DNA from: Candidatus Latescibacterota bacterium
Lineage (GTDB): Bacteria; Krumholzibacteriota; Krumholzibacteriia; WVZY01
NCBI GenBank assembly: GCA_020352495.1
Contig: CP070677.1
Location: 2,577,501-2,641,500, forward strand
DNA length: 64,000 bases
Direction: 5' to 3'
Under the pieces are notes generated by a model. The model ran no database searches and was not told the DNA's origin. It saw only the letters and a program-made list of their open reading frames with translations. The translations under genes were made by a program, and so were the position numbers. Shown here one piece after another: positions 11,637-47,180 of the stretch. How positions within the stretch are numbered: position 1 is the stretch's first letter; each line of letters begins with the position of its first letter.

Positions 11637-11768
11637 CCAAGCGGGCACTTGCAAACCGTTCTTTGATAGGTTAGCTTTGTCAAAGGGCAGTGAGTCGACT
11701 TTTGTTGATCGGGTGTGAGGACGATCGGCGCAACCCGATGCGAAAAAGGCACATTAAGGAGTAAAACG

Positions 11769-21900: not shown

Positions 21901-22450
21901 GTGCGATCATGGCAAACGACACGTAACAGAGCGCACCGACACCCATCGTGTTGGGTGATCCAAAGGGGAACAGAACGTTTGACGCCGATGATACGGCCAC
22001 GCCCTTCGGTTGATACATGTCGCACAGCGACAGTTCGAATGCCCCTCGCCCCGTATAAATCGCCACCGCCTCGGGCCCTGATTCTTTTTTTATGTTCAAC
22101 AGCCGACGCGAAATTTCGTCGTACGCCTCATCCCATGTGAATCGTTCGAACTCGCGGGACGGTTTTGGACCGACACGCCTCAGGGGGTGTCTCAGTCGAT
22201 GCGTGGAATAGACAATCTCCGGGGCGTGTTCGCCACGTCTGCAAATCATCCCCAACGGATGACCCTTGTCCGCGCGGATGTCGATCATCTCCCCATCCCG
22301 GATGGCCACTTCAACCCAACACCCGGCCGGACAAATTCCGCAGATCCCCTTCTTCCATTCGGGGCTAACGGTTCTGTAATTGGCTTTCTTCGACACCTCG
22401 AATCGCCTCTCCATCTGGCCCGATCGGAGATGTTTCCGTCTCACAGACAC
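18941..22450 (-). CDS. molybdopterin (bis-MGD) oxidoreductase fused in frame to a class V aminotransferase / cysteine desulfurase (NifS/IscS-like)
   Basis: 1169 aa single ORF. N-terminal ~770 aa: 4Fe-4S Cys motif GICGICPAGCWVEV...ICRRG, MopB domain, then a molybdopterin-dinucleotide-binding domain (...EINVADAESRGIEDGDLVEVRTPRGAVKFRARVTE...). Basic linker VRKKKRPAKEK...RQRQRKK. C-terminal ~390 aa: RIYLDNNATTE...SGHKFHGPKGVGALYVRKG (PLP-Lys)...SSGSACKSG (active-site Cys loop). No TAT signal, so cytoplasmic. Confidence 0.8.
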   Translation of the reverse strand: MSVRRKHLRSGQMERRFEVSKKANYRTVSPEWKKGICGICPAGCWVEVAIRDGEMIDIRADKGHPLGMICRRGEHAPEIVYSTHRLRHPLRRVGPKPSREFERFTWDEAYDEISRRLLNIKKESGPEAVAIYTGRGAFELSLCDMYQPKGVAVSSASNVLFPFGSPNTMGVGALCYVSFAMIAPHVTMGRMLVDMFTDIENAETLVVWGANPATDSPPLDMHRLEAAANRSADVIVIDPRMSETTRRTGAQWVPIRPGTDGALALGIIEVMIDEDLHDEDFAENWCHGFDELKSYVQHFSPEVVESITGVPADTTRELARRICNATGACPVMYTGLEYSNTGVQAIRAVLTLFALAGQLDVPGGIGLAMLRTHFPINRNCNQKNPNIDLAVARQRFPVYSDYRGESHASGLVDSVLKSDPYRIRGLIVHGASLMTSWPQTPLWRETLSRLEYLVCIDRQLTADASYADVVLPATTMFEIDSYMVYGPLFRLREKLIEPVGEARNDYLIMAGLADRLGYGHLYPQSEEEMIRTALEGSGYTLEDVENAGGWVKIDTPMMEFKKWEKGRLRKDGKPGFDTPTGKFEIHSMILDEYGYEPLPKYTEPTEGPVADRELAADFPLVFNSGARLHTDFRSQHHGIDGLVKDNPEPFVEINVADAESRGIEDGDLVEVRTPRGAVKFRARVTEYITEGAVECNMGGGAPAGPREWRERNVNELTDITNYDEITGFPVYKALLCDVVRVNELGGGAQVRKKKRPAKEKTFEHSKVGGGSRPVGRQRQRKKSATRIYLDNNATTELADEVRQAMLPYLETKHGNPSSIHGAGRDAREAIDRARRQVGQLINARPRRIMFTGGGSEADNLAVKGVAFAHRGQLNHVVTTRVEHPAVLGTCGFLERHGHEVTYLEVDQEGCLDPSTLESAINERTVLVSVMMANNEVGTILPIEELCRIAHSKGVLFHTDAVQAAGKIKIDVEELGVDMLTLSGHKFHGPKGVGALYVRKGIKLEPLLHGGMQEGGLRAGTENVPAIVGMGEAAVLALRNVNKSGEMRLLRDRLEEGVKRLVPDAILNGHREKRLPNTLNMTLPGLRGESLVVALDQHGVSISSGSACKSGSPKPTHVLIAMGRSEEDAHCSVRFSMSHKTTGQDIDEALSALEQVLEEMETAVRFLPCK

Positions 22451-29227: not shown

Positions 29228-32200
29228 CTACCGGTCTTCGTCTCTAATCCCCATCCCGCTACGGTCGGGATACGGCGGCCGCTTTGGCTTCTTGTACGGG
29301 TGTCGTTTGAGCTCGTCCAGCATGTGATCGATGGCCGCATCGAGTTGAACGTCCTTGCCGCCAACCATTTTTGCCGGATCATCTATGACTTCGATATCGG
29401 GATCGACACCGTGCCCCTCGATCCCCCACGTGCCATCCTTTTCGTAAAACGCGAACGTCGGGGCGCTTGTATAGCCGCCATCGATCAATCGCGGATTGCC
29501 GCTGAGACCCACGAGACCTCCCCAGGTGCGCGTACCGATTAGTTTGCCCAATCCCGCCTCTCTGAACCAGAACGGGAAGTAATCACCACCGGACCCAGCC
29601 AGCCCGTTGATCAACATACACTTCGGCCCTTGATGAGCGTCGGGAGGCCACGGGAAGGAGTCGTCCCGATCGCGAAGCGCCCAGTAGTTGGCTATCGGCC
29701 GATTGAGGAGCTCGATGAAACGTGTGGGAATCTGGCCACCCCCGTTCCACCGTTCGTCGATGATCAATGCGTCGACGTCGACTTGTCCAAAATACTGGCG
29801 AACGAGCTCGTTCTGACCCCAGATGCTCGTGTTTGGGACATAGATATATCCAACCCTTTCATCGGTCTTCTCCGCAACATAGGCGCGGTTCTTCTCGACC
29901 CAGGCCCGGTAGCGAAGCATGTACTGCGAGCCTTCGAGTTTTACGAGTACATGACGCGCCTTGTCACTCATGGTCGGTTCTTCACTTACGGTCAGCGTTA
30001 CCGTCCGATTTGCCAACCCGACAAAGGCGGCCCACGGGTCCTTCGCCGTATCCACGGGGACGCCGTTTACCGCGAGGAGGTAATCGCCTTCTTTTATATC
30101 GATACCGGGCTGGCTCAGGGGCCCCCTGCCGTCGACGTCCCACGGGGCAGCCTCGAGAATCCTCGCCACGCGGTATGCACCGTTTTCTAGTTTGAAATCA
30201 CACCCGGGCATACCAACGCTCACACTCGGAGCCTCCTCCACATCACCGCCAAAGTAGTATGCATGTCCCACGTTGAGCTCGGAGATCATCTCGCGGATCA
30301 CATAGCTAACGTCTTCCCGCGAGGCGCAGTCTTTTAGCATTGGGCCGTAGTGTTCACGCACCGCCTCCCAATCGACGCCGTGCATATTGGGGTCGTAGAA
30401 GTAATCTCTCTGTATGCGCCATGCGTCGTTAAAGATCTGATTCCATTCCTCGCGTGGGTCTATTTGGCTCATCATACCCGACGTGGACACCATATCTTTG
30501 AGCTTTTGATCGGGCTTGGCGTCGACGATCGCCATGCCACGCTCCCAAGTCACGACGAGAAGCTTCTTACCGTCCGCAGACATCGCATAACCCCTGACGC
30601 CCTTCACAACGGTCTTTTCCCTTTCGTCCTCCTTCTCCTCATCCAGATCGAGGAGGTGAATCGACGTCTTCTCGTCCATCCCGCGAAGCGGGTTTCTCTC
30701 GTATATGAGCTTTCCCTCGTCGTTCACGTTCAACTGCGAGAAATTGCCACGTTCGACGGGGAGCAGAACGGCCCGGCGCTCGAAGTCTTCGAGATCGATC
30801 TTCACGGGCTCCGGTTTATCCTCGTCCTTGGAGTCCTTCTCTTCTTTTTCCCCCTCTTCCTTCTCTTTGTCTGCTTCGTCTTTCTTTTCCTCGTCGTCCT
30901 TTTCGTCCGCTTTTTCGTCGTCCTCCTTGTCCCACGTTTCGTCATCGCTCTTTGGTGCGAGCGGCGACGCGATTTCCTTTGTCAATGGAACGGCATAGAG
31001 CCGATCTGTATGAGCGTAGATCCAAGTCGTTCCGACATCTTCGTACATCGGTGACGAAAAATCCCGAAGGCTGGCAAAATAGAGATACTTCCCCTCGCGG
31101 TCGAACGTCGGCCAGGTATCATGGAACATCCCGCTCGTGACCTTCTGTTTCTTTTCGTCCTCGATATCGTAGAGCCAAATGGCGTTGGGTGTGATCATCC
31201 CCTCCCTGAGACTGTAGGCCATCCATTTCGAATCGCTCGACCAACTCACACGGGTTGCCCTTCCCCAACCCTTGTATTGATCCACCTTTTTTGTCTTTCC
31301 GCTTTCGACATCGGTGAGGTGAAGCTTCCCGGCTTTGTCCCAGAAACAGATCCACTTCGAGTCCGGCGACCAGGTCGGCAGGTAGAGGTAGCCGGCCTTG
31401 AGACTCGTGAGCCGCCGCGTCTCCCCCCGACCATCCGACTGCATGACATAGAGCTCGTACTCGCCGGTTTCATCCGAGAAATACGCGATCCATCGCCCAT
31501 CGGGACTCCAGGAAGGATCCCTTTCGGCATAGCCGCTCGTGCGGTGAAGATTGATCGGTGAACCCTTCTTTGCCGGGAGCGTCCAGATGTCTCCTCTCGC
31601 TCCCACGACGACACGTTTACCCGTGGATGATATGTCACGCCTGAATATTAGATCGCTCGTGTCGATCGCCTGGACACGGATCTTTGGCCGGTCTCCGGGA
31701 ATGGTTATCGAGATGCTTCGCGATTTCTCGCTTGCCAGATCGAGGAGATAGATGTCCGATGCGTGTTGGAAAACGATCTCCCCTTGTCCCTCCGATCCCG
31801 GACCAATCGAAGGCCACTTGACGTCGTAGTCCCGATACGTTGTAACCTGACTATTCTCACCGGTCTTCACATCGTGAACCCAGATGTTCAAACGATGTCC
31901 CTTACCGGCATCCGAGAGGTAATAGATCTTATCCCCATTCCACATGGGTTGGGTATCGGTTCCTTCCCAGTCTGTGATTTTCTTCGATTCGTGTGTTTTT
32001 AGGTTGAAGAGCCAGATATCTGTCGCCATCCCACCCCGGTACCTTTTCCACGTCCGGTGATCTCTGCTGTGTGGCGTGTAGGCAAGCCACTCGCCGTCTT
32101 CGCTCACCGCTCCGTTGGCCCCGTAAGGCACGGGCAGCTTCTCCGGCAGACCACCTTCGGCCGAGACGGTGAACATCTCTTGGGCCCTGGGGTAGTCGTA

Positions 32201-32600
32201 CATCCCATAGGCCCAGAACATCAACCGGCCGTCCGGTGTCCAATCGGTTATCACTTCGTTTGACGGATGGTGTGTGACACGAAATGGTGTGCCACCCGAT
32301 GTGGGTACCGTGTATAGATCGAGGTCGCCGTCGTAGTTCCCCATAAATGCAATCGTCTCCCCGTCAGGGCTGAACCTCGGGTACGCCTCCGCACCGGGCG
32401 GACCCGCCAAAGGCGTCGCCAAACCACCTTCTTTGGGTACAAGCCAGAGATCGTTGGCATAAAGAAACGCGATGTGCGTCTCGCTCACATCCGGGTACCT
32501 CAGCATTCCCGCGTGTGGCTCGACTGCAACTGCCTCGGCCGCGAACCCAAACAAAAGACCCAACAACGGTATCGCGGCGCAGAATCTGGAAACGGCCATC
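29228..32600 (-). CDS. tricorn protease homolog (tandem beta-propellers + PDZ + C-terminal S41 peptidase)
   Basis: Start MAVSRF with RBS aggagg and a signal peptide. TolB-like WD40 propeller repeats (PDGETIAFMGNYDGDLDLY...). Acidic D/E/K linker. The C-terminal PDZ and S41 region aligns with the tricorn/Tsp family. Confidence 0.8.
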
Positions 32601-32802
32601 TCGACTCCTCCTTCTGATGACGTTGGATGAACGTTCTCCGTAGACGTGGGGGGATCAATCATTACATACGAAACGGGGAGGATAAAGTTCTACTTTTCGT
32701 TCCACCCCCGGAGTGGGTATTCGGTCTTTTGACTCCGGTCGACTGACCGTATTATACTCGACTCGTCTCGGGGAAAAGCCTCGGCGGAAACGGAGGATCT
32801 AG

Positions 32803-34961: not shown

Positions 34962-35675
34962 CTATTCGGAATAGATCGCCTTTATGGCCCCCCAGGAACT
35001 CTCCTTAGTCGGCACCGTCGTGTCATGTGAGAACGCCGTCTTACACTCGTTCCCGTCGCGGTGGAGATTGTAGTTTTCGTCGGAGAAGGCGTAGATTCTC
35101 ACGCCATAGCAGATCTCCCACACGATGTGGTGGGTCACCTGATCCGAGTAGTTGTTGCCGTGCTCCGTCGGTGTCGAGACGACGAGATCACCGATCGGAT
35201 AGTACCATCCCAAACCCGCGTCGTACAAAATGGGATTCCCATCGACCCAGATATTGGGTACACACCACTCCGGCTCGAATTGATCGAACACGAGTAGTAT
35301 GTTGACATACGTCGTCGGCTCGTCGCTAAAACCGTCAACGATCAAATTGAAGTCCGTGCCGATCGCATAGTACCCCTGGTTGTCTTCGTCCAACACAAAC
35401 CCCGTGAGACCCGGAGCCTGATAGACCTCCCAGGCAATCTCGTGGGTGATGGCGTCGATCAACACCTCTCCGCCTCGATCGTACATCGGATCATAGAGCG
35501 AATCTCCCGGTCCGACCGTGTAGTACTCGCTCGACTCGTAGTGATACTCGCACGGACCTTCCGGATAAACGATGAGACAGGGATCGGGGGTTGCGTGACC
35601 GGCCGCAGGAAAGAGAGCTACACTCAAAAACACGAAACCTAAGCCACAAAGCGCTGCCCTTAGCAGATTTCGCAT
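34962..35675 (-). CDS. secreted hypothetical protein with C-terminal 'SSWGAIKAIYSE' tag
   Basis: Signal peptide MRNLLRAALCGLGFVFLSVALFPAAGHA. Aromatic and Cys-containing. The C-terminus matches the tag of the 14275..14823 protein. Confidence 0.6.
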   Translation of the reverse strand: MRNLLRAALCGLGFVFLSVALFPAAGHATPDPCLIVYPEGPCEYHYESSEYYTVGPGDSLYDPMYDRGGEVLIDAITHEIAWEVYQAPGLTGFVLDEDNQGYYAIGTDFNLIVDGFSDEPTTYVNILLVFDQFEPEWCVPNIWVDGNPILYDAGLGWYYPIGDLVVSTPTEHGNNYSDQVTHHIVWEICYGVRIYAFSDENYNLHRDGNECKTAFSHDTTVPTKESSWGAIKAIYSE

Positions 35676-36111
35676 TACACCCTCCTCTCGGAAATTGAAC
35701 CGGTGACAGGCGCCTCGGGTGTATCTGCGCCTCGCGGGCCAAAATTCAACTTACTGCGAAACCAAACCGCGCTGCTCGACGTTCTTTTTGCTGGTTGTAA
35801 TATCTTTGTTGGATTTGGCTACACGGTGACTTCGATGTACGCTCAGTAATGGAACGTGTTGTGGTTCTCGGCGAAGCCAAACGACGTATTCGCCCCATAA
35901 GAACGCCCCTGACGTCGTGCGTTGCATATTATACCACAAACGGTTGTTGAAATCCACGTCTAACCTCTTCAAAAGCCAAAGCAAACGATACATGCACGAA
36001 TTCTTCCGAGGGCTCTTCCACACCCTCGACCGAACCATTCCGGGCTGGACAACTCCACCACTGGCCGCTATGTTTGAACGAAGTGCAAACGAGGAACCGA
36101 GTGTCGTTACC

Positions 36112-36591
36112 ATGCCGACTAGTGCGATTTTGATCAGCAGTGACCGCGCCGCGAGCGGAATCCGTCCTGATCGGACCACCGCACTGCTTTCCGACAAGCT
36201 GAGTGCCTTGGGTTTTGACGTTGTTCACAACGCGGTCGTCCCAGATGACAAACTTGGCATTGTCAAAACATTGCGCGCGTGGGTTAATGAAGGAATTGAA
36301 GTGATCCTGATATCCGGCGGGACCGGCGTGGCCCCCACCGATGTCACGCCTGAAGCGACGCTCGAGGTCATTACTCGTCGCGTACCGGGTATGGAGGAAG
36401 CGATGCGCCGCGTATCGCACGAGAAGACTCCGTTTGCGATGCTTGCACGCGGGGTCGTCGGAATCGCCCGGTCGAGTCTCGTCATCAACTTGCCGGGCAG
36501 TCCGACGGGCGCAGTCGAGAATCTCGAGGTCGTCGCTCCCGTCTTGGAACACGCGCTCGAGCTAATTCAAGGGGGCACACCCGACGGATGA
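36112..36591 (+). CDS. mogA: molybdopterin adenylyltransferase MogA/MoaB
   Basis: MPTSAILISSDRAASG...ILISGGTGVAPTDVTPEA...INLPGSPTGAVENLE are MogA/MoaB signatures. An alternative upstream start at 36070 is possible. ATGA overlap with moaA. Confidence 0.8.
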   Translation: MPTSAILISSDRAASGIRPDRTTALLSDKLSALGFDVVHNAVVPDDKLGIVKTLRAWVNEGIEVILISGGTGVAPTDVTPEATLEVITRRVPGMEEAMRRVSHEKTPFAMLARGVVGIARSSLVINLPGSPTGAVENLEVVAPVLEHALELIQGGTPDG

Positions 36592-37595
36592 GCGATCACG
36601 AAACACATCCCAGCAGTTGTCTGACGGATCTCAGCGGCCGGAGACTCTCGTACCTCCGTATCTCGCTTACCGACAGGTGCAACCTCAGATGCGACTACTG
36701 TTATCACTCCGTGAACGAATCACAAATCGCGGAGAGGGAACTCTCCGATGACGAGGTGATCCGTCTCGTCCGTGTCTTTTCCAAAATGGGGTTCGACAAG
36801 ATCCGTTTCACCGGCGGCGAGCTTCTCTTGCGCGATCGCGTAGTCGATCTGATACGAGAGACGGCCGTCACAGCCGGTGTGTCACTGATAGGAATTACGA
36901 CAAATGGTCTTTTGCTGGAGAAACACTTGCCGGGGCTCATCGACGCCGGTCTCAATCGACTCAATGTGAGTTTGGACACGTTGGATCGGGAAAAATTCAA
37001 ACGCATCACGGGAGTCGACGGTCTCGATCGGGTAACCAGCGTAATCTCGCGAGCCCTGGAAACGAATGTGTTCCCGCGAGTCAAAATCAATACCTTGGTC
37101 ATGCGGGGCGTGAACGATGACGAAATCGATAAGCTCGCCGACTGGGGGCTCTCTCGCCGGACCGATCTGAGGTTTATTGAGTTTATGCCGACCCGTGGTT
37201 CGGGTTGGGAAGAGAGTCGCTTTGTCAGTCAAGACGAGATGATTGAACGCGTCCGTGGTCCACTCGACATCGACCCGGTGATCGAGCCCAACAGTGGGCC
37301 CGCCTTGACATTCAAACAACGGGGCCGCCCGGGGCGCGTCAGCTTCATCTCCGCGGTCAGCCGAAGCTTTTGCAACGAGTGTAACCGGCTTCGCGTCACA
37401 TCCAGGGGTACAGTCGTTGGCTGTCTTTTTAGTGGGAAAGAAATACGCATTCGCGAGCTTCTCGATCCGCGCGTCGATGATGAAACGATCATTGCCGTCA
37501 TCAAGACCCTGACACGATCACAAGATTTCAGACGAGGGATCGAAAATCGAACCCGCACCTGGGAAGGCCCGTCAATGAGGGGGATTGGGGGATGA
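36588..37595 (+). CDS. moaA: GTP 3',8-cyclase MoaA (radical SAM)
   Basis: Radical-SAM cluster motif LTDRCNLRCDYCY. C-terminal FCNECNRLRVTSRGTVVGCLF is the MoaA auxiliary-cluster motif. Confidence 0.9.
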   Translation: MSDHETHPSSCLTDLSGRRLSYLRISLTDRCNLRCDYCYHSVNESQIAERELSDDEVIRLVRVFSKMGFDKIRFTGGELLLRDRVVDLIRETAVTAGVSLIGITTNGLLLEKHLPGLIDAGLNRLNVSLDTLDREKFKRITGVDGLDRVTSVISRALETNVFPRVKINTLVMRGVNDDEIDKLADWGLSRRTDLRFIEFMPTRGSGWEESRFVSQDEMIERVRGPLDIDPVIEPNSGPALTFKQRGRPGRVSFISAVSRSFCNECNRLRVTSRGTVVGCLFSGKEIRIRELLDPRVDDETIIAVIKTLTRSQDFRRGIENRTRTWEGPSMRGIGG

Positions 37596-38620
37596 GCAGG
37601 CGTAAACCCACACATCTCGACGACGCCGGCAAAGCGCGGATGGTTGACATCGGGGGCAAGAGAGAGACCAATCGTCGTGCTGTTGCGTCCGCGCGGGTCG
37701 TGGTTTCCGATGAGTTGCTCGTCATGTTGAAGAACAACACCCTAGAGAAAGGTGATGCGATCGCAGCCGCCCGCCTCGCCGGCATCCAGGCGGCCAAACG
37801 AACGGGCGACCTGATTCCCCTCTGTCACCCCCTGCCCCTCAGCTATGTCGACGTCGATCTCCAGCTCATTGACGAACCGCCTTCCATCGTTATCACGACC
37901 GAGGCGCGGACCCATTACCGGACGGGCGTCGAGATGGAGGCTCTGACGGCGGCGGCTGTTGCGGCATTGACGATTTATGACATGGGGAAGAGCATCGATC
38001 GAATGATCGCGATCGAACACGTTCGGCTCGAGAGCAAAAGCGGCGGCGCCAGCGGGGAGTGGTCGCGGCGCGATTCGTCCCCTAGCGAAACCGGTTTGAA
38101 CCCGAAACCTCGTATCAAACGAGAGGGACGCATGACGAAGCCAAAACAAAACAAAGCGCAAGTGCACAAGATTTCTGTTGCCCCGACCACGGGTGAAAAA
38201 AAACAGAACGTCGCTCTGGCGGTGATCACTGCCGGCCGGGGCGTAGAAGGGGACGCTCATTCGACGACGGACCGCCCCCTGAGCCTGCTCCCTCTGGAAA
38301 GCTTCCATAAGGTGCAACACCCCGATCTCGATGTTCACCCAGGCGACTTTGCGGAAAACGTCACCACGTCCGGGCTCGATTTTACACGGCTTCGCGTCGG
38401 TTCGCGCTTGCGTCTCGGCGCCTCCGTCGAGATCGAAGTCGTTCAAATTGGAAAAGAATGTCATAACGGGTGCGTAATCAGAGAGACCGTGGGCGATTGC
38501 ATCATGCCGAGTGAGGGCGTTTTTGCCCGTGCCCTCACCAGTGGTGAGATACGAGAAGGTGATCCTATCGAGATCCTGGAGAGTGGCGATCGCGTTTCCG
38601 AGACTCCCACTGTCGGTTGA
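37592..38620 (+). CDS. moaC: cyclic pyranopterin monophosphate synthase MoaC fused to a C-terminal MOSC domain
   Basis: ATGA overlap with moaA. N-terminal 160 aa is MoaC (MVDIGGK...IPLCHPLPLSYVDVD...EMEALTAAAVAALTIYDM). Linker. C-terminal ~150 aa is MOSC-like (VEGDAH...PGDFAENVTTSGLDFTRLRVGSRLRLGASVEIEVVQIGKECH.GC...GDCIMP..GVFARAL). Confidence 0.8.
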   Translation: MSRRKPTHLDDAGKARMVDIGGKRETNRRAVASARVVVSDELLVMLKNNTLEKGDAIAAARLAGIQAAKRTGDLIPLCHPLPLSYVDVDLQLIDEPPSIVITTEARTHYRTGVEMEALTAAAVAALTIYDMGKSIDRMIAIEHVRLESKSGGASGEWSRRDSSPSETGLNPKPRIKREGRMTKPKQNKAQVHKISVAPTTGEKKQNVALAVITAGRGVEGDAHSTTDRPLSLLPLESFHKVQHPDLDVHPGDFAENVTTSGLDFTRLRVGSRLRLGASVEIEVVQIGKECHNGCVIRETVGDCIMPSEGVFARALTSGEIREGDPIEILESGDRVSETPTVG

Positions 38621-38696
38621 CCCGCCGTGTTTCGATTTTTGCAGAGCAATCCCAAATCGCTAAGATGACAATACGTATATCGCTTGCGAGGCTGGC

Positions 38697-39281
38697 TTGA
38701 GTACACTTTACCCGGACATCACGGGCTATATTCTGGCGGGCGGACGCAGCCGCCGATTTGGCAAAGACAAACGCCAGATTCTCATTGGTGGGATCTCTCT
38801 ATTGGAGAAGACGCGTCGACTTCTCGTGGATCTTCTTGGCCGCGAACCGTTCGTCGTGGGCGACAACCTGTCCGATCTGGTTCTCGACCCTTCGACAATA
38901 GTCCCCGATTCCCGTCCGGGTTGCGGTCCCCTGGGCGGTTTGGTTGCCGCCCTTTCTCATTCACCAACGGTCTGGAGTCTTGTTATGGCGGCCGACATGC
39001 CGTTTCTGACGATCGAGGATCTTCGTCGGCTTGCCGATGCCCGAGCAGAGAGATTCGATGTGGTAGCCTTAAGTAGGACCGGCGCACCGGAGCCTCTTGC
39101 CGCGCTGTATCACATTCGACGTCTGCACTACTGGCACGAGTGTCTCGATTCCGGTCTGTATTCACTGGCCAAGAGCATCAAGACCCTAGATTGCAAGACG
39201 GTGATACTTGGCGCCTCCTCGAGATCCCTTCAAAACATAAATACTCCAGACGTCTTGGACGTAATCGAGAACGATTTATGA
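38697..39281 (+). CDS. mobA: molybdenum cofactor guanylyltransferase MobA
   Basis: TTG start. ITGYILAGGRSRRFGKDK...GPLGGLVAAL motifs. Stop overlaps the mobB ATG. Confidence 0.8.
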   Translation: MSTLYPDITGYILAGGRSRRFGKDKRQILIGGISLLEKTRRLLVDLLGREPFVVGDNLSDLVLDPSTIVPDSRPGCGPLGGLVAALSHSPTVWSLVMAADMPFLTIEDLRRLADARAERFDVVALSRTGAPEPLAALYHIRRLHYWHECLDSGLYSLAKSIKTLDCKTVILGASSRSLQNINTPDVLDVIENDL

Positions 39282-39808
39282 CGACACACTTTTTCCGGAT
39301 CACTGGAGCGAAAAACAGTGGTAAAACCACACTCATTGTGAAGTTGACGGAGGAACTGATTGGCAGGGGATACCGCGTCGGCACAATGAAACACAGCTCA
39401 CACGATCACGAGTTCGACCGGTCGGGATCGGATTCTCATCATCACTCCGTGGCTGGAAGCAGCGCGACAATCATCCTCTCCCCCAACAAGCTCGTTTGCC
39501 ACACAAAACGCCCGCCCAGCGAAGAACTCTTTGCGATCATCCGGCAAGCCTACCACGACATCGACATTGTGTTGTGTGAGGGTTTCGCGAGATTCCCGGT
39601 TGCTCCTCAACCGACACCGATGATCGAATGCGTGGCTGCCGGTGAAGATCCCCTCTTCACTGGTGATCCGGACCTGGTGGCCGTCGTGGCGGACAAAACA
39701 CTCCCCGTCGATGTTCCGCTGTTTCCGCACTCCGCGACCACCGAACTGGCGACTTGGTTGGAGAAGACTTTTCACCTCGCGCCCGACACAAACACCGGTT
39801 CGCCATAG
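39278..39808 (+). CDS. mobB: molybdopterin-guanine dinucleotide biosynthesis adaptor MobB
   Basis: MTTHFFRITGAKNSGKTTLIVKL (P-loop)...GTMKHSSHDHEFD are characteristic of MobB. Confidence 0.8.
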   Translation: MTTHFFRITGAKNSGKTTLIVKLTEELIGRGYRVGTMKHSSHDHEFDRSGSDSHHHSVAGSSATIILSPNKLVCHTKRPPSEELFAIIRQAYHDIDIVLCEGFARFPVAPQPTPMIECVAAGEDPLFTGDPDLVAVVADKTLPVDVPLFPHSATTELATWLEKTFHLAPDTNTGSP

Positions 39809-39829
39809 CCGGCCGAAAGGCAACTGTCC

Positions 39830-41050
39830 ATGGACGAGATGAAAGACAGCCCACACACTCGTACGCCACAATCCGCCCCCTCTCACGAGGCGGCGTCGGA
39901 ACGAGTCCCGACAACGATCAGACAGAACATCCGTCAAATGCGGTTCAATCTTGCGGAACTCTCAGGCTCAATGGGTGACCTGGGGACGTTTCTCCCGCTG
40001 GTCGCCGGGATGGCGTTTGTTTGTGAAATGGACCTCGGGGTCATTCTGATTCTTGCCGGTATTGCCAACATAACCGTTGGAATCGTCTTTGGCATGCCGG
40101 TGCCCGTACAGCCGATGAAGGCGATCGCCGCTGTCGCGGTTGCCGAATCGCTTCTCCCCGACCAAATAGCAGCCGCCGGTCTAATCGTCGGGGCGGTCAT
40201 GTTGGCTCTCGGAGCGACACGGATCGTCCAATATGTTGAAAAAGTCATCCCGCTCCCCGTGGTAAGAGGGATACAGCTGGGTGTCGGACTCAAGCTAATG
40301 TTGCAGGCCGTACGTCTCGTGGCCGAGACCTCTTGGATCGGTCTGGACAGCGTGGCGGTCGGTCTTGGCGCCGCCTGTCTCATTGTGTTTGTGAACCGGT
40401 GGAAAAGATCTCCCGGTGCGCTCGTTCTGTTTGCCGCAGGTGTCGTCGTCGCCCTGTTGGAGACCCCGGCGCTTACACGATCCCTCTCGATCGGGGCACC
40501 AGAGTTTGTTTTCATCCTTCCGTCGGCGCGCTCCTGGTTCGACGGTTTTGTTCATGGCGCGGTTCCCCAGCTCCCTCTCACCGTGCTCAATTCCGTAATT
40601 GCCGTCTGCGCGTTAAGCGGTGATCTATTTCCCGGACGCCGCATACCGGCACCCACGATGGCCTCGTCCGTTGGACTCATGAATTTGCTCACATGTTGGT
40701 TTGGGGCCGTCCCCATGTGTCACGGATCGGGCGGACTTGCCGGGCAGTACTACTTTGGCGCCAGGAGCGGTGGCTCCATGGTGATGTTGGGAATCATCAA
40801 TCTCACCGTTGGACTCGTTCTTGGAGCCGCAGCAGCAGCCATCATCCACGCTTACCCCCGGTCGTTTCTTGGGGTGATGCTCTTTTTCGCCGGATTTGAG
40901 CTGGCCAAACCGGCGCGCGATCAGAGGGGTGGACGAGAGATATCGATCACAATAGTCACCGCGGCGCTGATCGTCGGTATCAATACGCTCGTCGGATTCG
41001 CGACCGGGATGGCACTGGCAGCCGTGTTGTCGCTCAGACGTACTCGCTAG
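39830..41050 (+). CDS. MOT1-family (PF16983-like) molybdate transporter, polytopic membrane protein
   Basis: Signature ELSGSMGDLGTFLPL near the N-terminus, which I recall as the conserved MOT1 motif. About 10 predicted TM segments. Sits directly downstream of mobB. Confidence 0.6.
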   Translation: MDEMKDSPHTRTPQSAPSHEAASERVPTTIRQNIRQMRFNLAELSGSMGDLGTFLPLVAGMAFVCEMDLGVILILAGIANITVGIVFGMPVPVQPMKAIAAVAVAESLLPDQIAAAGLIVGAVMLALGATRIVQYVEKVIPLPVVRGIQLGVGLKLMLQAVRLVAETSWIGLDSVAVGLGAACLIVFVNRWKRSPGALVLFAAGVVVALLETPALTRSLSIGAPEFVFILPSARSWFDGFVHGAVPQLPLTVLNSVIAVCALSGDLFPGRRIPAPTMASSVGLMNLLTCWFGAVPMCHGSGGLAGQYYFGARSGGSMVMLGIINLTVGLVLGAAAAAIIHAYPRSFLGVMLFFAGFELAKPARDQRGGREISITIVTAALIVGINTLVGFATGMALAAVLSLRRTR

Positions 41051-41346
41051 ACGGATTCGACTCTCCAAACCCCATGTAGGCGTAGGATATCGCCCAAAAT
41101 GATGCACGACTGACGCCTACGAACACTCCCCGGCGCCAATCGTAGGCGGGTAGGACGAGGAGCCGACACCCGCATGGAATCGCAACAAACCCACCCAGGC
41201 ACCCCGGATCGTCCGCCAAGACGGGCGGGCCCCCATCTTCTCCACGACCGATTTGACCCATACGGGCGGGCATTAACGCTTGAAAATAATAAGCTATTGT
41301 GATAAAATAGCTTTCAAGGCATTGGGAAAAAACTAGGGAGAGACAC

Positions 41347-42282
41347 GTGGCTTCTGCGGCCCTTTTGAGAAGAATCGGGTGTGCAGCCCTATTTCTCTTC
41401 CTGGCGTCACCTGTGTCGGCGCAGCTTGAGGACCAGTTATCATCATACACAGGTCGGAATGCCTCTGGTTATCTCGAGCCCTTGGTGGATGCGTTCGCCG
41501 CAGATCTAAACGCCGGGCTCTACCATTCTGCGCACATTTCAAGGGGGGGGCTTCAGGCAAGTATAGAGATCCTGTTCATGTCCGTGTTTTTCACGGACGA
41601 AGACAGAACGTTTACGGCCACAACCGAGGGTGGTTTTCAACCGCCCCAACAAACGTATGCTCCGACGGTCGTCGGAGCCAAGAAAGCCGTATACGTCGAC
41701 GGCGTTGCCGGGACGAAGTTTGCGTTTCCAGGAGGATTCGATCTCAATTCGTTTTCTTTTGCCGTGCCGCAGCTTCGTGTGGGCTCTCTTTACGGAACTG
41801 AAGCGCTCATCCGGTTCGGACTGTATTACACCGGAAACGCGGACGTCGAGACCCCGATGCTTTATGGGTTTGGTCTTCGACACAGCGTTTCACAGTATAT
41901 ACGACAGCACGTGAGCGATCGCTTCCCCGTCCGTTTGGCTGTCGGGGCGTTCTGGCAGCGTTTTTCGATGGGGGAAAACGAAAGGGGTGATGATTTACTA
42001 GTAGCTGACGCGTTATCCGTGGGACTCCACATGAGTAAGCGATTTACGAGATTGGAGCCTTACGCGGGTGTATCCTACGAGACCTTCTCAACCGAAGTGT
42101 CATACCTGGGAGAATCGCCCGATGATGAAATCAATCTTACGCTCGAGTCAGAGGACCATGTCCGTCTCACACTCGGGTTATCATACAACATCGCTTTCGT
42201 GGTCGCGCACGGGGAGTACAACATTGGTGGCCAGAACGCTTTCGCATTGGGGCTGGCCTTGCAACATCGTCCGTCAGAATAG
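41347..42282 (+). CDS. secreted putative outer-membrane beta-barrel protein
   Basis: GTG start with RBS gggagag. Signal peptide AALFLFLASPVSAQ. Alternating amphipathic beta-strand pattern. Ends with an aromatic-rich terminal strand. Confidence 0.5.
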   Translation: MASAALLRRIGCAALFLFLASPVSAQLEDQLSSYTGRNASGYLEPLVDAFAADLNAGLYHSAHISRGGLQASIEILFMSVFFTDEDRTFTATTEGGFQPPQQTYAPTVVGAKKAVYVDGVAGTKFAFPGGFDLNSFSFAVPQLRVGSLYGTEALIRFGLYYTGNADVETPMLYGFGLRHSVSQYIRQHVSDRFPVRLAVGAFWQRFSMGENERGDDLLVADALSVGLHMSKRFTRLEPYAGVSYETFSTEVSYLGESPDDEINLTLESEDHVRLTLGLSYNIAFVVAHGEYNIGGQNAFALGLALQHRPSE

Positions 42283-42294
42283 GAGTGTGACAGT

Positions 42295-42915
42295 ATGAGG
42301 GTCGCAAAAATAGTCATGTTGCCAGTCGTTTGCATGCTCATTTTCGCAAGCGGCTGCGTTTATGACGAGCTGGCAAGTGAGGTTGTCGTCACTGAGAAGG
42401 TTGTTGTTCAATTCAAGGAGCACCGGGTGAGTCCGGACATCAATAGTGCGGTGGTGTGCGATCGTTTTCGGCAGCGGCTGCTTGGAATTCTCGATGATCA
42501 TGGTGCCACGCTCGACGATATCGTGAGCATCACGATGGTGAGCGGCCAATACAAAGTCGCCAAGCCCGCGAAGGATAAGTCCATCGACTGGACGGTCGCG
42601 GGTGACGTCACCGTCGCGCGTCAGGATGACCCGAGCGGTCCCGTCACCGAGGGTCCGGAAACGTTTGTGAACTTTACCACTCAGCCGCTACAACCGGCCA
42701 AGAGCACACCGATCTATGCGGATCTGAATTCAGCCGGTGTGACAGTGATCAACAACGCGCTGGAGGATCTTCGCAACGGTGGGGATCCCCGTCTTGTCCT
42801 CAACATGGGGAGTGACAATATCACACCCGCTCCGAGCCCATCGAACCCGCTCGATTTTAGTTGGCTCGCGATGGTGACGTTCCAGGTCGTCATTGACATG
42901 GACAAGACAGAATAG
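42295..42915 (+). CDS. lipoprotein, paralog A of tandem pair
   Basis: Lipobox IFASGC. About 50% identical to the next gene (shared CVYDELASEVVVTEK..., GPVTEGPETFVNFT, IYADLNS.GV, DPRL, FSW...TFQVVI). Confidence 0.65.
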   Translation: MRVAKIVMLPVVCMLIFASGCVYDELASEVVVTEKVVVQFKEHRVSPDINSAVVCDRFRQRLLGILDDHGATLDDIVSITMVSGQYKVAKPAKDKSIDWTVAGDVTVARQDDPSGPVTEGPETFVNFTTQPLQPAKSTPIYADLNSAGVTVINNALEDLRNGGDPRLVLNMGSDNITPAPSPSNPLDFSWLAMVTFQVVIDMDKTE

Positions 42916-43014: not shown

Positions 43015-43638
43015 ATGAAGACACATGTCATGCGACTTGTCGTTCTTCCGGTCTTCTGCCTGCTCACTCTCGCCGGGGGTTGTGTATACGACGACTTAAC
43101 GAGCGAGATGGTGGTCACCGAAAAGATCTGTGTAACCCTTGACGAGTACCGCGAAAGCGGGACCCTCGGGAGTGCAGTCGTTTGTGACCAGATTGCCGAT
43201 CGCGTCTACAAGCTGCTCGATAAACACAATTCCAAGGTAAAGGATATCAAGAGCATCGGCGTGATCAGCGGAACTTATCGGGCGGCCCGGCCGTCGCAGG
43301 CCGACCACGATTGGACGATTACATCCGAAGTCACGATAAAGAGGCAGGACAACCCGGCCGGACCGGTCACCGATGGCCCTGAGACGTTTGTCAATTTGAC
43401 GAGCCAATCGCTTCGCGCGGCGCAGGGCGGGCCCATTTACGCCGATCTAAACTCCGACGGCGTCGGCCTCATTGCGAGAGCGTTGGGCGATTTGTTGCTC
43501 GGTGAGGATCCTCGTCTCATCGTCACGATGGAAGGGGGCACGATCGATCCGGAACCCACGCCGGCGGATCCGCTGTCGTTTAGCTGGCGTGTCTGCGTGA
43601 CGTTTCAGGTGGTCATTGAGAAGCACCTGAACAAATAA
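43015..43638 (+). CDS. lipoprotein, paralog B of tandem pair
   Basis: Lipobox LTLAGGC. Colinear homology with the 42295..42915 product. Confidence 0.65.
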   Translation: MKTHVMRLVVLPVFCLLTLAGGCVYDDLTSEMVVTEKICVTLDEYRESGTLGSAVVCDQIADRVYKLLDKHNSKVKDIKSIGVISGTYRAARPSQADHDWTITSEVTIKRQDNPAGPVTDGPETFVNLTSQSLRAAQGGPIYADLNSDGVGLIARALGDLLLGEDPRLIVTMEGGTIDPEPTPADPLSFSWRVCVTFQVVIEKHLNK

Positions 43639-43734: not shown

Positions 43735-45123
43735 TTACTCCGTGACACGTCGTGCACTCTGTCCGGTCGGATCCAGCCCAGCAATTGCCATGGCCAGATC
43801 GTTGGACATTTGCCCGCGTGGTGTTGGGATCTCCATGTCCATGTAGTATTCGCACCGGTCGATCAACTCTCCCACCGCAGCACCCACCACCGCGTAGACA
43901 AAGAATCTCTCAAATTCGAATGCCACGACGGCGGTCGGGACGACCAGGCCTATGAAGACCCGTGTGAGAGACAGGGCCCATCTCGGGTTCCCGCGGTGCG
44001 TTCTCAGATGATGCTTCCCAATCGCGTACAAAATGAGTCTGAGCACGGCGAGCGTAACGACCGTGGGGACATCCCTCGCAATGAGACCGGCGACAAACAA
44101 ACCGACGAGAACCACCTGACCACTGTGCTGGTTCAGCCCCCTCGCCCCGGTCACACCATACAACCGGTCCATGGCGAACAACGCGGCAAAGCCGATCCCG
44201 GCACACATCCAACCCACCGAGCTCAGGTGGGGCACCCCGATCAGGTAAAGCGTGGCCGCTGCCAAAAACAAAGGAAACAGGATGACTTCGCGGCTAAGCC
44301 ATGACTGCCTCCAGTTGAGCATCGCCCGGTGGGCGCGTCTCTTCCTTCCAATGTGGAGCGTGCTGAGCAGGAAGCCAGCGACTCCGGCTGTCAAAAACAG
44401 GGCGGGGTCGATCCTCACCGTTGAGACAACTGTCGCTGTCAGGTATCCGGTCATCCACGCAGCAATCAGTGTGAAAACGACCAAGCTCCATTCGTTGCTC
44501 AGCGAAATCTTCCTGTCACGAGTGGTTTTCCGGTCGTCCCCGACCGAAACGGACAAACCCGTCCCCCCACTGCCACTGGCCCTTGGGAACGATCGTTCCT
44601 CCCGCAAATCCACAAACTGGATCGCCGGTTTGGCACCGCTGTCGGGAAATCCGAGAGTATTGCGGTTCCCGTCTTGCAGATTGTCGTCAGCGATCCCCAA
44701 CGCCCCCGTCGGGCAGAGCGACACGCACACGGGGTCCTCCCCTACGCTCAGGCGGTGTTCGCAGAACGTGCACTTCTCCATCACTTCCGCCACAGGATCG
44801 AACTGCGGCGCGTCGTATGGACACACCCACGAACAGTATTTGCAGCCGATACAGAGTTCTTTGTCTATTGTGACCGCACCGGTCACGGGATCCTTCGAGT
44901 ATGCCAGCGCCGGGCAGTACTTCATACATGGCGGGTCCAGGCAGTGGTAACACGCCCGCGAGTGATGAAATACGGGTATCCCTGGAATCCGTGCGGCGTT
45001 GAACGTGTTTATCCGCCGCCACGCCATCCCGATCGGGAGCTCGTTCTCGATGGCGCACGCTATCTGACAAGCCGAGCAGCCCGTGCATTTGTTTACGTCG
45101 AACAAAAATCCCTTCTGCATCAC
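43735..45123 (-). CDS. 4Fe-4S ferredoxin-type (DmsB/PsrB-like, 4-cluster) subunit fused to C-terminal polytopic membrane-anchor domain
   Basis: N-terminal CTGCSACQIAC, CYHCLDPPCMKYCP, CIGCKYCSWVCP, CTFCEHR...CVSLCP cluster motifs. C-terminal ~250 aa has about 7 TM helices. 4-nt overlap with the upstream Mo catalytic subunit. Confidence 0.75.
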   Translation of the reverse strand: MMQKGFLFDVNKCTGCSACQIACAIENELPIGMAWRRINTFNAARIPGIPVFHHSRACYHCLDPPCMKYCPALAYSKDPVTGAVTIDKELCIGCKYCSWVCPYDAPQFDPVAEVMEKCTFCEHRLSVGEDPVCVSLCPTGALGIADDNLQDGNRNTLGFPDSGAKPAIQFVDLREERSFPRASGSGGTGLSVSVGDDRKTTRDRKISLSNEWSLVVFTLIAAWMTGYLTATVVSTVRIDPALFLTAGVAGFLLSTLHIGRKRRAHRAMLNWRQSWLSREVILFPLFLAAATLYLIGVPHLSSVGWMCAGIGFAALFAMDRLYGVTGARGLNQHSGQVVLVGLFVAGLIARDVPTVVTLAVLRLILYAIGKHHLRTHRGNPRWALSLTRVFIGLVVPTAVVAFEFERFFVYAVVGAAVGELIDRCEYYMDMEIPTPRGQMSNDLAMAIAGLDPTGQSARRVTE

Positions 45124-47180
45124 CGCGCTCTTTCGACCTCCACAAGGGCGTCATGAAACGCCGCGCCATGCGCCATATCCGTCTCGCGCCCCAGGGAACA
45201 GATATTGACCGTTCCGCCTTCCGAGATCCACCAGCCGTTGGTGACCGAGACACATCCCCTCTTGATGCTATAGTCGTAACGTGCCTCGAGCTCGATCGAT
45301 CCCCGTTCGTTGAACACCCGCACCATTGTCCGATCCGTTATCCCTCTACTCCTGGCGTCCTCGGGGTGTATCTCGACAAAAGGGGCAGGACTGAGATCAC
45401 GAATCATATCCAGATTATTGAACTGTGAGTGGATCCTGTCTTTCGTGTTTGGCGTGAGAAAATAAAGCGGATATTTTCCCGACTCCGGTGTTTTTTGCCG
45501 GATCGACTCCTCTGGCTCCACGTACGTCGGGAGCGGATCGACGCCCCACCAATCTTTCGCCTGTTGTGACACCAGTTCGATCTTTCCCGATGGTGTCTGG
45601 AACACCATGTCCGAGAACGCCACCTCCTCTTGCCCTGGCGCCAATACCGGTCCCTCTCTCAGCCGCTCGATTGAAAGTTCGGGAAACGGCTCGAGCTTTT
45701 TTTTAAGAAAAGCCTCGACGTCGGCATCCGTCGGGCCTGGGATACACTCCTCTATTATATCCTTTTCCGGAATGCCAAGACGCTGGGCCAGCCTGAAATA
45801 CATCTCGGACTCGGGTTTCACATTACCGGGTGGGTCCATCACCTTCTGTTTGAGCTGAATGTACGTGTGCCAATAGGCGTTGATCACATCCGTCTGTTCG
45901 AACATCGTTTTGGCAGGAAGAACGATGTCGGCTTCTCGCGCCGTGTCGGTCAAAAACTGTTCAACAACGACGCGAAAATCCAGCGACCGAAATGCCTCGA
46001 GCACCGTGTCGGTCTCCGGATTCTGTGTGACCGGATTTCCACGTTCGACCCACACCATCTTGAGCGGTGGATCATCGGTTTCGATCATGTCCCGCCCGAG
46101 TTTGGCTGTCGATACTGATACTCGAACGACACCATCCGGTTCTTTCGGGGGATAAAAGGCGATCGGGTCTTTCACCTTGTCGAATATATGGCTCTGGAGA
46201 TTGGCAAAGATCCATCCCGCTCCGGGTTTGCCGATGTTTCCCGTAATTGCCAGAAGCGCAAGGATCGCCCGCATCGTCTGCCCACTATTCGTGTAACGCT
46301 GCATCCCGAACCCCGCGTTGATCGTCACGGGTTTTACCTCTCCAATCAAACCGGCGATTTCGTGGATGTAACCGACGGGAACGTCGGAGATCTGCGAGGC
46401 CCTCTCCGGTGTCATCCCTTCGACCATCTCGGCAAACTCGGAGAACCCATGAACGTGGGCGTCGATGAACTCACCGTCGAGTTTGTCGTTTCGGATCAGA
46501 AGATGGGCGATGGCCAATGCCACTGCCCCGTCCGATCCCGGTCTAGGTTGTATGAGGAGCTGCGCCCGCTCGGATGATTCGGTTCGTCGTGGATCGATGA
46601 CGATCAACTTCGCCCCTCCATCGAGCGCCTCGTTGATAAAGGGCATCTGATGAATGTTTGTCTCAGCGGCGTTCTTCCCCCAGAGAACGATCAGCTTGGC
46701 CTTCGCGATATCCCATGGGGCGTTGTGCTTGTTCTCACCAAGCGTAAGCCTCGTCGCTTCGAGACCGGCCGACCAACACAGATCACCAAATGTCGTTGTG
46801 CATCCCCCGTAGAGCTTCCAGAACGCCGTCCCTACGATGTTCAACAACCCTTTTGTCCCGCTTCCGTTGTAATAAAAGACGCTCTGTGGCCCAAACGCGG
46901 CCCGGTAATGCCTGAGACGTTCCGCGATCGTCTCCAACGCCACATCCCATGAGATCGGCTCGAATTCGCCGCTCCAGCCAATTTTTCTCAGTGGATCGAG
47001 GATACGGTGTGGAGAGTGAACGCGCTCGATGTAACTGAGCCCCTTGAGACAGGGGCCTTCGCGTGTGGCTTGGTTTCCGGGATGGGATTCGATCCTTTTG
47101 AGGCGGTTGTTCTCCACGTACACCTTCATCGTGCACGTGCTGTAACAGTTGCGCGGACACCCCGTCGTATACACTTTCAT
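45120..47180 (-). CDS. molybdopterin (bis-MGD) oxidoreductase catalytic subunit, cytoplasmic (no TAT signal)
   Basis: N-terminal FeS motif CPRNCYSTC...C. MopB-family motifs (VLWGKNAAETN; LIVIDPRRTE). C-terminal molybdopterin-dinucleotide-binding domain (FVEIHPEDARSRGITDRTMVRVFNERGS). Confidence 0.85.
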   Translation of the reverse strand: MKVYTTGCPRNCYSTCTMKVYVENNRLKRIESHPGNQATREGPCLKGLSYIERVHSPHRILDPLRKIGWSGEFEPISWDVALETIAERLRHYRAAFGPQSVFYYNGSGTKGLLNIVGTAFWKLYGGCTTTFGDLCWSAGLEATRLTLGENKHNAPWDIAKAKLIVLWGKNAAETNIHQMPFINEALDGGAKLIVIDPRRTESSERAQLLIQPRPGSDGAVALAIAHLLIRNDKLDGEFIDAHVHGFSEFAEMVEGMTPERASQISDVPVGYIHEIAGLIGEVKPVTINAGFGMQRYTNSGQTMRAILALLAITGNIGKPGAGWIFANLQSHIFDKVKDPIAFYPPKEPDGVVRVSVSTAKLGRDMIETDDPPLKMVWVERGNPVTQNPETDTVLEAFRSLDFRVVVEQFLTDTAREADIVLPAKTMFEQTDVINAYWHTYIQLKQKVMDPPGNVKPESEMYFRLAQRLGIPEKDIIEECIPGPTDADVEAFLKKKLEPFPELSIERLREGPVLAPGQEEVAFSDMVFQTPSGKIELVSQQAKDWWGVDPLPTYVEPEESIRQKTPESGKYPLYFLTPNTKDRIHSQFNNLDMIRDLSPAPFVEIHPEDARSRGITDRTMVRVFNERGSIELEARYDYSIKRGCVSVTNGWWISEGGTVNICSLGRETDMAHGAAFHDALVEVERAR

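Follow-up and report, generated by a model that had tools for sequence, protein, structure and literature searches.

A molybdenum cofactor (Moco) locus with its own transporter gene was described in 2017 in Caldithrix abyssi, which belongs to the FCB (Fibrobacteres-Chlorobi-Bacteroidetes) superphylum, and in which Cabys_2007-2011 encode MoaA, MoaC, MoeA and a MOSC protein together with the PF16983 (MFS_MOT1) transporter Cabys_2008 (PMC5317091). Proteins of PF16983, named 'SulP-family molybdate transporters', have also been noted in sulfate reducers (PMC5840216), and the presence of MOSC genes within molybdenum or tungsten cofactor operons has been pointed out since 2002-2006 (PMC1779556) and again in 2026 (PMC13390414). 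A survey from 2018 reported MOT1 to be absent from bacteria and counted 278 molybdenum-using bacteria without a known transporter (PMC6147048), and a paper from 2026 mentions its 'restriction to eukaryotes' (PMC13144720). The locus analysed here belongs to a Candidatus Latescibacterota bacterium and lies in a stretch of 64,000 nucleotides (contig CP070677.1, positions 2,577,501 to 2,641,500), hereafter called the window, within which all coordinates below are counted. Proteins of the window have identical NCBI counterparts on a 4.3-Mb Latescibacterota contig. The locus is a Moco operon that ends with a MOT1-family gene and in which MoaC and a MOSC domain share a single open reading frame (ORF).

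Six consecutive genes on the + strand, at approximately 36.0-41.05 kb, encode a MogA/MoaB-like protein, MoaA, the MoaC plus MOSC product, MobA, MobB and a PF16983 membrane protein. Their identity as a Moco operon follows from domain and family matches that far exceed chance, and the domain calls of a preliminary description of this DNA, made from its sequence, were borne out by Pfam and NCBIfam, including PF03473, PF01967 and PF16983. The region is very probably a standard bacterial operon for the branch of Moco synthesis that leads to bis-MGD (bis-molybdopterin guanine dinucleotide), with a molybdate-transporter-family gene in last place. Its features are the following:

36046..36074, + strand: putative promoter, TGGACA-N17-TATGTT, upstream of mogA (consensus scan; conserved in the alignment with the sister genomes L001 and L003)
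36070..36591, + strand, with the ORF open from GTG 35917: mogA/moaB-like gene for molybdopterin (MPT) adenylyltransferase (PF00994 MoCF_biosynth, E 8.8e-31)
36588..37595, + strand: moaA, GTP 3',8-cyclase of the radical SAM type (Radical_SAM and Mob_synth_C; TIGR02666, 315 bits, cutoff 284)
37592..38620, + strand: MoaC-MOSC single ORF (Pfam MoaC at residues 17-152, E 8e-51; MOSC at residues 220-327, 37.6 bits, gathering score 22.7)
38072..38188, + strand: fusion junction, former moaC stop and intergenic spacer that are now read through (sequence; alignment with L001 and L003)
38249..38572, + strand: MOSC domain proper, with C290 (QIGKEC), H291, C294 and C303 (profile match to YiiM 5yhh; AlphaFold model, pLDDT 90.8)
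38621..38696, + strand: intercistronic gap of 76 nt (ORF coordinates and sequence)
38697..39281, + strand: mobA, molybdenum cofactor guanylyltransferase, TTG start (PF12804 NTP_transf_3, E 5.4e-28)
39278..39808, + strand: mobB, adaptor GTPase of MGD biosynthesis (PF03205, E 5e-28; TIGR00176, 98.6 bits, cutoff 76.2)
39830..41050, + strand: MOT1-family polytopic membrane protein, predicted molybdate importer (PF16983, E 2.5e-57, two stretches)

The same order, mogA-moaA-moaC-MOSC-mobA-mobB-MOT1, recurs with the same flanking genes in a sister Latescibacterota genome (L001), and another one (L003) keeps both the order and the flanking genes but has moeA in place of mobB. The best NCBIfam matches of the mobA product are MobA models, every one of them under its cutoff, and its length and position are equal to those of MobA in L001. 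Concerning the limits of the genes, the start of mogA had been set at 35917, which is the outermost possible GTG; the real start would be ATG 36070 or ATG 36112, because the 169-aa orthologue of L001 (62% identity) aligns from residue 55 of the ORF and the promoter-like box occupies 36046..36074. The genes from mogA to mobB had also been described as translationally coupled by ATGA overlaps throughout. Such overlaps are present at three of the four junctions (mogA/moaA, moaA/moaC and mobA/mobB), whereas the 76-nt gap and the TTG start separate moaC-MOSC from mobA. Likewise, the distance of 21 nt between mobB and the transporter is right when measured from the mobB stop to the first ATG of the transporter ORF, but it becomes 129 nt with the NCBI start (ATG 39938, 36 codons later, 370 aa instead of 406 aa), where several homologues begin too.

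An operon of this kind is routine, since its layout was already described in Caldithrix abyssi and is common in bacteria. Both loci share a PF16983 'molybdate transporter' inside a Moco cluster with MoaA, MoaC and a MOSC protein. The Caldithrix abyssi locus differs in having an upstream Moco riboswitch, which is not detectable in the window, in including moeA where the window operon has mobA and mobB, and in that MoaC and the MOSC protein are listed separately there (PMC5317091), whereas they form one ORF in the window. Judging by homology and by what is known of Moco biochemistry, GTP would be converted into cyclic pyranopterin monophosphate (cPMP) by MoaA together with the MoaC domain, the MogA/MoaB-like protein would adenylate MPT, and MobA, with MobB, would turn Mo-MPT into bis-MGD. 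The MOT1-family protein, which is related to SulP and has no STAS domain, is most likely an importer of molybdate, and the supply of the metal would in this way be co-expressed with cofactor synthesis. We infer expression as one transcript, as well as the transport substrate and the function of the MOSC domain. The genes moaD, moaE, moeB and moeA would be encoded elsewhere, because none of them was found among the scanned ORFs of the window.

The assignment of the last gene to the MOT1 family, already made in the preliminary description, is confirmed by PF16983, by the signature motifs (the first exact, the second but for one position) and by the similarity to eukaryotic homologues. PF16983 scores 192.4 bits (cutoff 30) in two stretches that span both halves of the protein, and it is the sole Pfam match of the 406 residues, so a STAS domain is absent. 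Two MOT1 signature motifs have been published, PXPVQPMKX(I/L)(A/G)AXA and FGXMPXCHG(S/A)GGLAXQ(Y/H)XFG(A/G)RXG (PMC10385300). The first is matched exactly by PVPVQPMKAIAAVA at residue 90. At the second, FGAVPMCHGSGGLAGQYYFGARSG at residue 291 fits 23 of the 24 positions, with V for the fixed M; strict agreement with this motif was found in 15 of 25 aligned bacterial homologues. The N-terminal ELSGSMGDLGTFLPL, which had been taken for the MOT1 signature, is conserved in the family but is not one of the two published motifs (PMC10385300). No solved structure related by sequence was found when the MOT1 profile was run against PDB sequences (E<=1).

In an exhaustive HMMER search, the number of cluster representatives was 2778 with a limit of E<=1e-3, and 530 with E<=1e-30. 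Ten of the longer matches were looked up, and every named one came from a eukaryote (Mesotaenium, Asimina, Tetraselmis, Parachlorella, Chromera and Cyanophora). The streptophyte, algal and alveolate homologues present 42-47% identity to the window protein (E 1e-66 to 6e-90). With the eukaryotic MOT1 proteins of Chlamydomonas, Arabidopsis and Neurospora it shares the Pfam family, the first motif in exact form and the second but for one position, and the lack of STAS. However, the bacterial members have a length of only about 370-410 aa, versus about 450-620 aa in eukaryotes, the conserved halves are contiguous in the window protein whereas several longer eukaryotic hits match in two stretches, one motif position is V and not M, and the operon linkage to Moco synthesis is without eukaryotic counterpart. 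As a separate observation, GenBank gives the Asimina triloba homologue (P0369, KAL6010679.1; 44% identity with the window protein) the name 'TATA-binding protein-associated factor mot1', which appears to be an annotation error from the shared gene symbol.

The transporter had been called eukaryote-type, a label that does not fit the distribution of the family, which is abundant in bacteria. PF16983 was found in all of the 120 best protein matches, and the matches for which an organism is given come from bacterial metagenome-assembled genomes (MAGs) of many phyla. A scan with one genome per GTDB species gave 388 confirmed MOT1 relatives, among them Poriferisphaera sp. WC338 and strain ZRK32, which are cultured Planctomycetota, and the loci of the best 80 of these 388 were analysed by tblastn with the Moco proteins of the window. 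Moco genes are present in 42 of the 80 loci, and in 39 they are directly adjacent to the MOT1 gene and on the same strand; the linked loci span Zixibacteria, Planctomycetota, Myxococcota, Omnitrophota and others. In the four contigs looked up (L001-L004), the MOT1 gene is always the last of the Moco operon. The linkage to Moco genes makes a strong guilt-by-association case for a predicted role in the uptake of molybdate (or tungstate). Bacterial MOT1 genes in Moco operons are therefore common, yet overlooked in current accounts of prokaryotic molybdate uptake.

Regarding the third gene, the fusion of MoaC and MOSC in 37592..38620 is, in the sequence as given, what was first described, the C-terminal half falling within MOSC by Pfam, by fold and by its canonical cysteine. 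The product has 342 aa, is identical to the NCBI protein P0001 and joins both parts through a low-complexity linker of approximately 40 aa. Its MoaC half scores above the family cutoffs (PF01967, 172 bits; TIGR00581, 186 bits versus 141.5; NF006870, 204.9 versus 162), and PDB structures of MoaC are matched by the family profile at E 1e-67. The best-scoring NCBIfam model for the whole protein is NF011069 (PRK14499), 'MoaC/MOSC-domain-containing protein' (E 3.3e-95), with the same two domains in the same order; the architecture is thus already known and has its own model. The best 119 relatives of the fusion in a collection of 5.8 billion proteins (41-51% identity) all carry both MoaC and MOSC, and a few add MoaB as a third domain. 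Among these relatives are MAGs named Armatimonadota, Firmicutes and Pseudomonadota. Three fusions checked in their contigs (one Firmicutes MAG, one Armatimonadota MAG and a third MAG) are all in plain Moco operons, arranged as mobAB-moaA-moaC/MOSC-mogA, moeA-moeA-moaA-moaC/MOSC and moaC/MOSC-mogA.

In the closest genomes the arrangement is different. moaC and MOSC are separate adjacent genes in L001 and L003, both Latescibacterota, and also in L002. A MOSC gene is present in 12 of the 80 MOT1-linked loci, and in the 10 of them with a moaC-MOSC pair the genes are always in different frames. The stand-alone MoaC of L001 shares 70% identity with the MoaC half of the window, and the MOSC half reaches 61-66% with the separate MOSC proteins of L001 and L003, while the identity of the window halves to other fusions is only 41-52%. 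Since each half is nearer to the stand-alone genes of the sister genomes than to other fusions, the window fusion would be a local event that arose independently, through the loss of the moaC stop, unless it is a one-base assembly error. At the junction, the Shine-Dalgarno-like GAGAGGGA at 38121..38128 and the in-frame ATG 38132 (M181) match the ancestral MOSC start. The MOSC domain may also be produced on its own, because this old ribosome-binding site and its ATG persist.

MOSC proteins of the Moco sulfurase (MOS), mARC and YcbX groups have a MOSC_N domain, whereas YuaD-like proteins are small, restricted to prokaryotes and made of MOSC only (PMC10637980). No MOSC_N domain was found by Pfam in the MoaC-MOSC protein, and the window MOSC has the make-up of the small, prokaryote-only, MOSC-only proteins like YuaD. 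PF03473 scores 37.6 bits with the full protein and 40.4 bits with the domain alone (gathering score 22.7), and it is matched by the 18 aligned members of the subfamily. With the MOSC half as a single query, no PDB sequence was matched at E<=1; the family profile was needed, and it reaches YiiM (E 2.6e-4), aligning C290 with the cysteine of its QPRQPC. For the AlphaFold model of the domain, the best solved folds are YiiM, YuaD and mARC1, with a probability of 1.00, and the modelled beta-barrel has a TM score of 0.73 to YuaD, the best, and of 0.67 to YiiM. The fold and the position of the conserved cysteine are thus shared with YuaD of B. subtilis (PDB 1oru) and YiiM (PDB 5yhh, 5yhi), but sequence identity is only 19-24%, the helical C-terminal domain of YiiM is absent, and the motif QIGKECHxxC...GDCxMP belongs to the subfamily of Moco operons. 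In this motif (C-x8-C spacing between C294 and C303), the three cysteines are invariant among the sampled relatives and H291 nearly so. Read from the motif, the group C290/H291/C294/C303 could be a metal site or a persulfide-relay site.

The remaining claim of the preliminary description was that the window encodes a split version of the Moco sulfurase MOCOS, with the MOSC domain on MoaC and the NifS-like half on another protein. The fusion of NifS to a molybdoenzyme that it reported is real:

18941..22450, - strand: PsrA-like bis-MGD oxidoreductase with a C-terminal NifS cysteine desulfurase domain (Pfam, NCBIfam)

This gene encodes a molybdopterin oxidoreductase whose C-terminal NifS domain keeps the pyridoxal phosphate (PLP) lysine and the catalytic cysteine intact. 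The molybdoenzyme part is nearest to the Thermus polysulfide/thiosulfate reductase PsrA and to acetylene hydratase (PDB 2vpw, 2e7z), and its polysulfide-reductase-like site could use as substrate the persulfide made by the NifS domain. The protein, of approximately 1140 aa, presents 71-76% identity among the best 119 database relatives, from many phyla, and its relatives in metagenome contigs mostly 65-75%, with a minority at 54-58%. The family spans Calditrichaeota, Gemmatimonadota, Acidobacteriota, Methylomirabilia, Gammaproteobacteria, Deferribacteres and others. In its loci (L005-L009, L093-L172) the neighbours are unrelated and vary by genome, and it is annotated only as 'IscS/NifS'; a literature search for a molybdopterin oxidoreductase with a fused cysteine desulfurase found no paper. 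It is an independent, widely conserved gene, and it looks more unusual than the Moco operon. An Nfu/NifU-type Fe-S scaffold gene (Nfu_N and NifU domains; 11715..12404, + strand) was also observed approximately 6.5 kb from it.

The neighbourhood of this family was analysed by tblastn in 83 loci with 703 kb of flanks, up to 10 kb each. None of the 83 has a MOSC, MoaC, MogA, MoeA, MobA, MobB or MOT1 gene in the flanks; a single 'MoaA' match (26% identity) was discarded as an unrelated radical-SAM protein. Conversely, the NifS-fused enzyme is present in none of the 80 MOT1 loci and in none of the three MoaC-MOSC fusion loci. In the window, the NifS-fused gene and the operon lie on opposite strands approximately 14 kb apart, and the interval contains genes for citrate synthase, phosphoenolpyruvate carboxykinase, histidine kinase, aminotransferase, tricorn protease and acyl-CoA synthetase. 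The sole NifS-type gene near any of the 80 MOT1/Moco loci is a stand-alone NifS-like gene of an uncultured bacterium (L064, 3039..4157), without a fused oxidoreductase domain, 2.5 kb upstream of moaC-mogA-moeA-MOT1.

Taking the operon together, a tentative joint reading can be put forward, according to which MOT1 proteins would be the molybdate importers of many bacteria of the FCB, Planctomycetes-Verrucomicrobia-Chlamydiae (PVC) and delta-type groups, and the three-cysteine MOSC protein an uncharacterised step or carrier of Moco biosynthesis. Several points weigh against the account of the operon given above. No Moco gene was found within the fetched flanks of 38 of the 80 MOT1 loci, although some of these flanks are short, and no transport assay of a bacterial MOT1-family member was found in the literature searched, so the substrate could be tungstate or another oxyanion. 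The reported lack of ModABC holds for the scanned ORFs of the 64 kb (no ModABC-like protein among the larger ones, which comprise most of those of >=150 aa), and is thus a statement about the window and not about the 4.3-Mb genome. The fusion reaches 318.7 bits and stays below the equivalog cutoff of NF011069, 457. No Moco riboswitch or other Rfam family was detected in the whole window at gathering thresholds or in 35600..36200 at E<=1. Finally, no experimental test of small MOSC function in Moco operons was found in the literature, and these proteins could be Moco-using reductases like YiiM instead of pathway components. Import of tungstate, sulfate or another oxyanion in place of molybdate agrees with the NCBI name 'putative sulfate/molybdate transporter', with the name 'sulfate transporter' of some relatives, with the M to V change in one signature position and with the fact that Moco operons also serve tungsten cofactor synthesis, but it is unlikely in view of the tight, recurrent Moco-gene linkage, the family motifs (one exact, one with the V) and the 42-47% identity to streptophyte, algal and alveolate homologues. 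Besides, the characterised eukaryotic MOT1 proteins are molybdate-specific, sulfate-insensitive and STAS-less like the window protein (PMC10385300). Tungstate as a co-substrate is possible. As for the MOSC domain, it might act as a Moco-dependent client that detoxifies N-hydroxylated compounds and is merely co-expressed, as the nearest solved relatives include the Moco-dependent N-reductase YiiM and mARC (PMC10637980), and the canonical Mo-ligand cysteine is kept. This proposal deserves some weight, without being the probable one: the domain has no YiiM C-terminal helical domain and its best TM score is to the MOSC-only YuaD, the further two cysteines, which are invariant, and the nearly invariant histidine point to another chemistry, and its recurrent fusion to MoaC (in some lineages also MoaB) and its constant position between moaC and mogA/moeA speak for a role within the pathway. 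Because of that constant place after moaC and the repeated fusions, the MOSC half is most likely an accessory of the pathway that binds a pterin or Moco intermediate or carries sulfur via its conserved cysteines.

The fusion itself may be questioned, since a one-base indel in the spacer could have joined the frames of two genes that are separate in the real genome. In favour of this, moaC and MOSC are separate and in different frames in L001, in L003 and in the 10 adjacent pairs of the MOT1-linked loci, the +1 and +2 frames of the window reach TGA/TAG within approximately 30 nt past 'EWSRR', the ancestral MOSC Shine-Dalgarno sequence and ATG are unbroken at the junction and no close database relative has this particular fusion (next best matches, 46-51% identical). 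However, the given sequence and the NCBI annotation both have a single ORF of 342 aa, and the same architecture arose in many other lineages, which makes it biologically plausible; an assembly artefact is thus rather unlikely, and the functional reading of MoaC-MOSC is unaffected by whether the fusion is real. Far less credible is the split MOCOS, in which the MOSC domain on MoaC would receive, in trans, the persulfide of the NifS domain, both together sulfurating Moco for the bis-MGD enzymes of the organism. The idea has in its favour that both domain types of MOCOS/ABA3/HMCS, NifS-like and MOSC, are in one 64-kb window, that the NifS domain retains its PLP lysine and catalytic cysteine and the MOSC domain its canonical cysteine and two more invariant ones, and that some bis-MGD enzymes, such as formate dehydrogenases, require a sulfido ligand. 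For this requirement fdhD has been cited (PMC13390414). Nevertheless, MOCOS carries NifS-like, MOSC_N and MOSC on one polypeptide and acts on Mo-MPT for members of the xanthine-oxidase family, none of which is in the window, whereas here the MOSC is small, sits on MoaC and lacks the MOSC_N of the MOS group (PMC10637980), and the NifS is on a PsrA-like bis-MGD enzyme on the opposite strand, beyond approximately 14 kb of housekeeping genes. Moreover, MoaC-MOSC fusions and moaC/MOSC pairs are found widely, in Moco operons of the ordinary kind and without such an enzyme in the vicinity, and flanks of up to 10 kb contain neither MOSC nor another Moco gene in any of the 83 NifS-fusion loci. A wide occurrence of the fusion without association to NifS had been named in the preliminary description as speaking against its idea, and this is what the gene neighbourhoods show. 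Owing to these neighbourhood results and to the missing MOSC_N, the split MOCOS is unsupported and highly improbable, and dropping it averts a misleading annotation.

The window adds one more clear case in which a MOT1-family gene forms part of a Moco operon, here in a phylum that has been little studied. If the joint reading is true, MOT1 is possibly the importer in some of the 278 transporter-less molybdenum-using bacteria (PMC6147048), and the 'eukaryotic' MOT1 would be an inheritance from bacteria. In the same case, the small MOSC protein, which the recurrent moaC-MOSC pairing marks as a candidate component of Moco biosynthesis, would handle sulfur or a pterin intermediate after cPMP formation.

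Concerning regulation, the counts of the promoter and terminator scan of 35600..41500 are at shuffle level, and only TGGACA-N17-TATGTT gained weight, by its conservation: the same promoter-like box lies at about 6165..6195 in L001 and about 5700..5730 in L003. In these two genomes the mogA ATG is found 8 nt after the -10-like box, which suggests, from the sequence, a leaderless mogA transcript. The window does not have that ATG, and its start would be either inside the box (36070) or at ATG 36112. The predicted folding of the 5' leader is no stronger than that of shuffled sequences (z = 0.57).

The preliminary description was also right in counting two bis-MGD enzymes in the window, at 18941..22450 and 45120..47180, both on the - strand. 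The second one and its partner lie beyond the operon:

43735..45123, - strand: Fe-S subunit with a membrane-anchor-like tail, 462 aa (Pfam, NCBIfam)
45120..47180, - strand: DmsA-like bis-MGD enzyme (Pfam, NCBIfam)

L001 and L003 have this pair in synteny with the Moco-MOT1 operon too, and DmsA-like genes are near MOT1 in several other loci. The Fe4S4 domain of the DmsA-like enzyme starts at residue 1, leaving no room for a twin-arginine translocation (Tat) signal. In the 462-aa partner, a 4Fe-4S dicluster domain at the N-terminus is followed by a long C-terminal region, and the L001 orthologue of this partner matches DmsC, which suggests a fused DmsB-DmsC protein. The DmsA-like enzyme is likely a client of the operon, as are other bis-MGD enzymes. 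The ORF at 29228..32662, considered as a second large molybdoenzyme, was rejected, since it encodes a tricorn-type protease.

Between the MOT1 gene and this pair, a DUF6588 gene (41347..42282, + strand) is followed by two genes for proteins without Pfam match (42295..42915 and 43015..43638). In L001 and L003, MOT1 is also followed by DUF6588 and then by an unannotated gene of approximately 207 aa, and the second unannotated gene is present only in L003. A promoter-like site with 10 of 12 matches was observed at 41280..41308.

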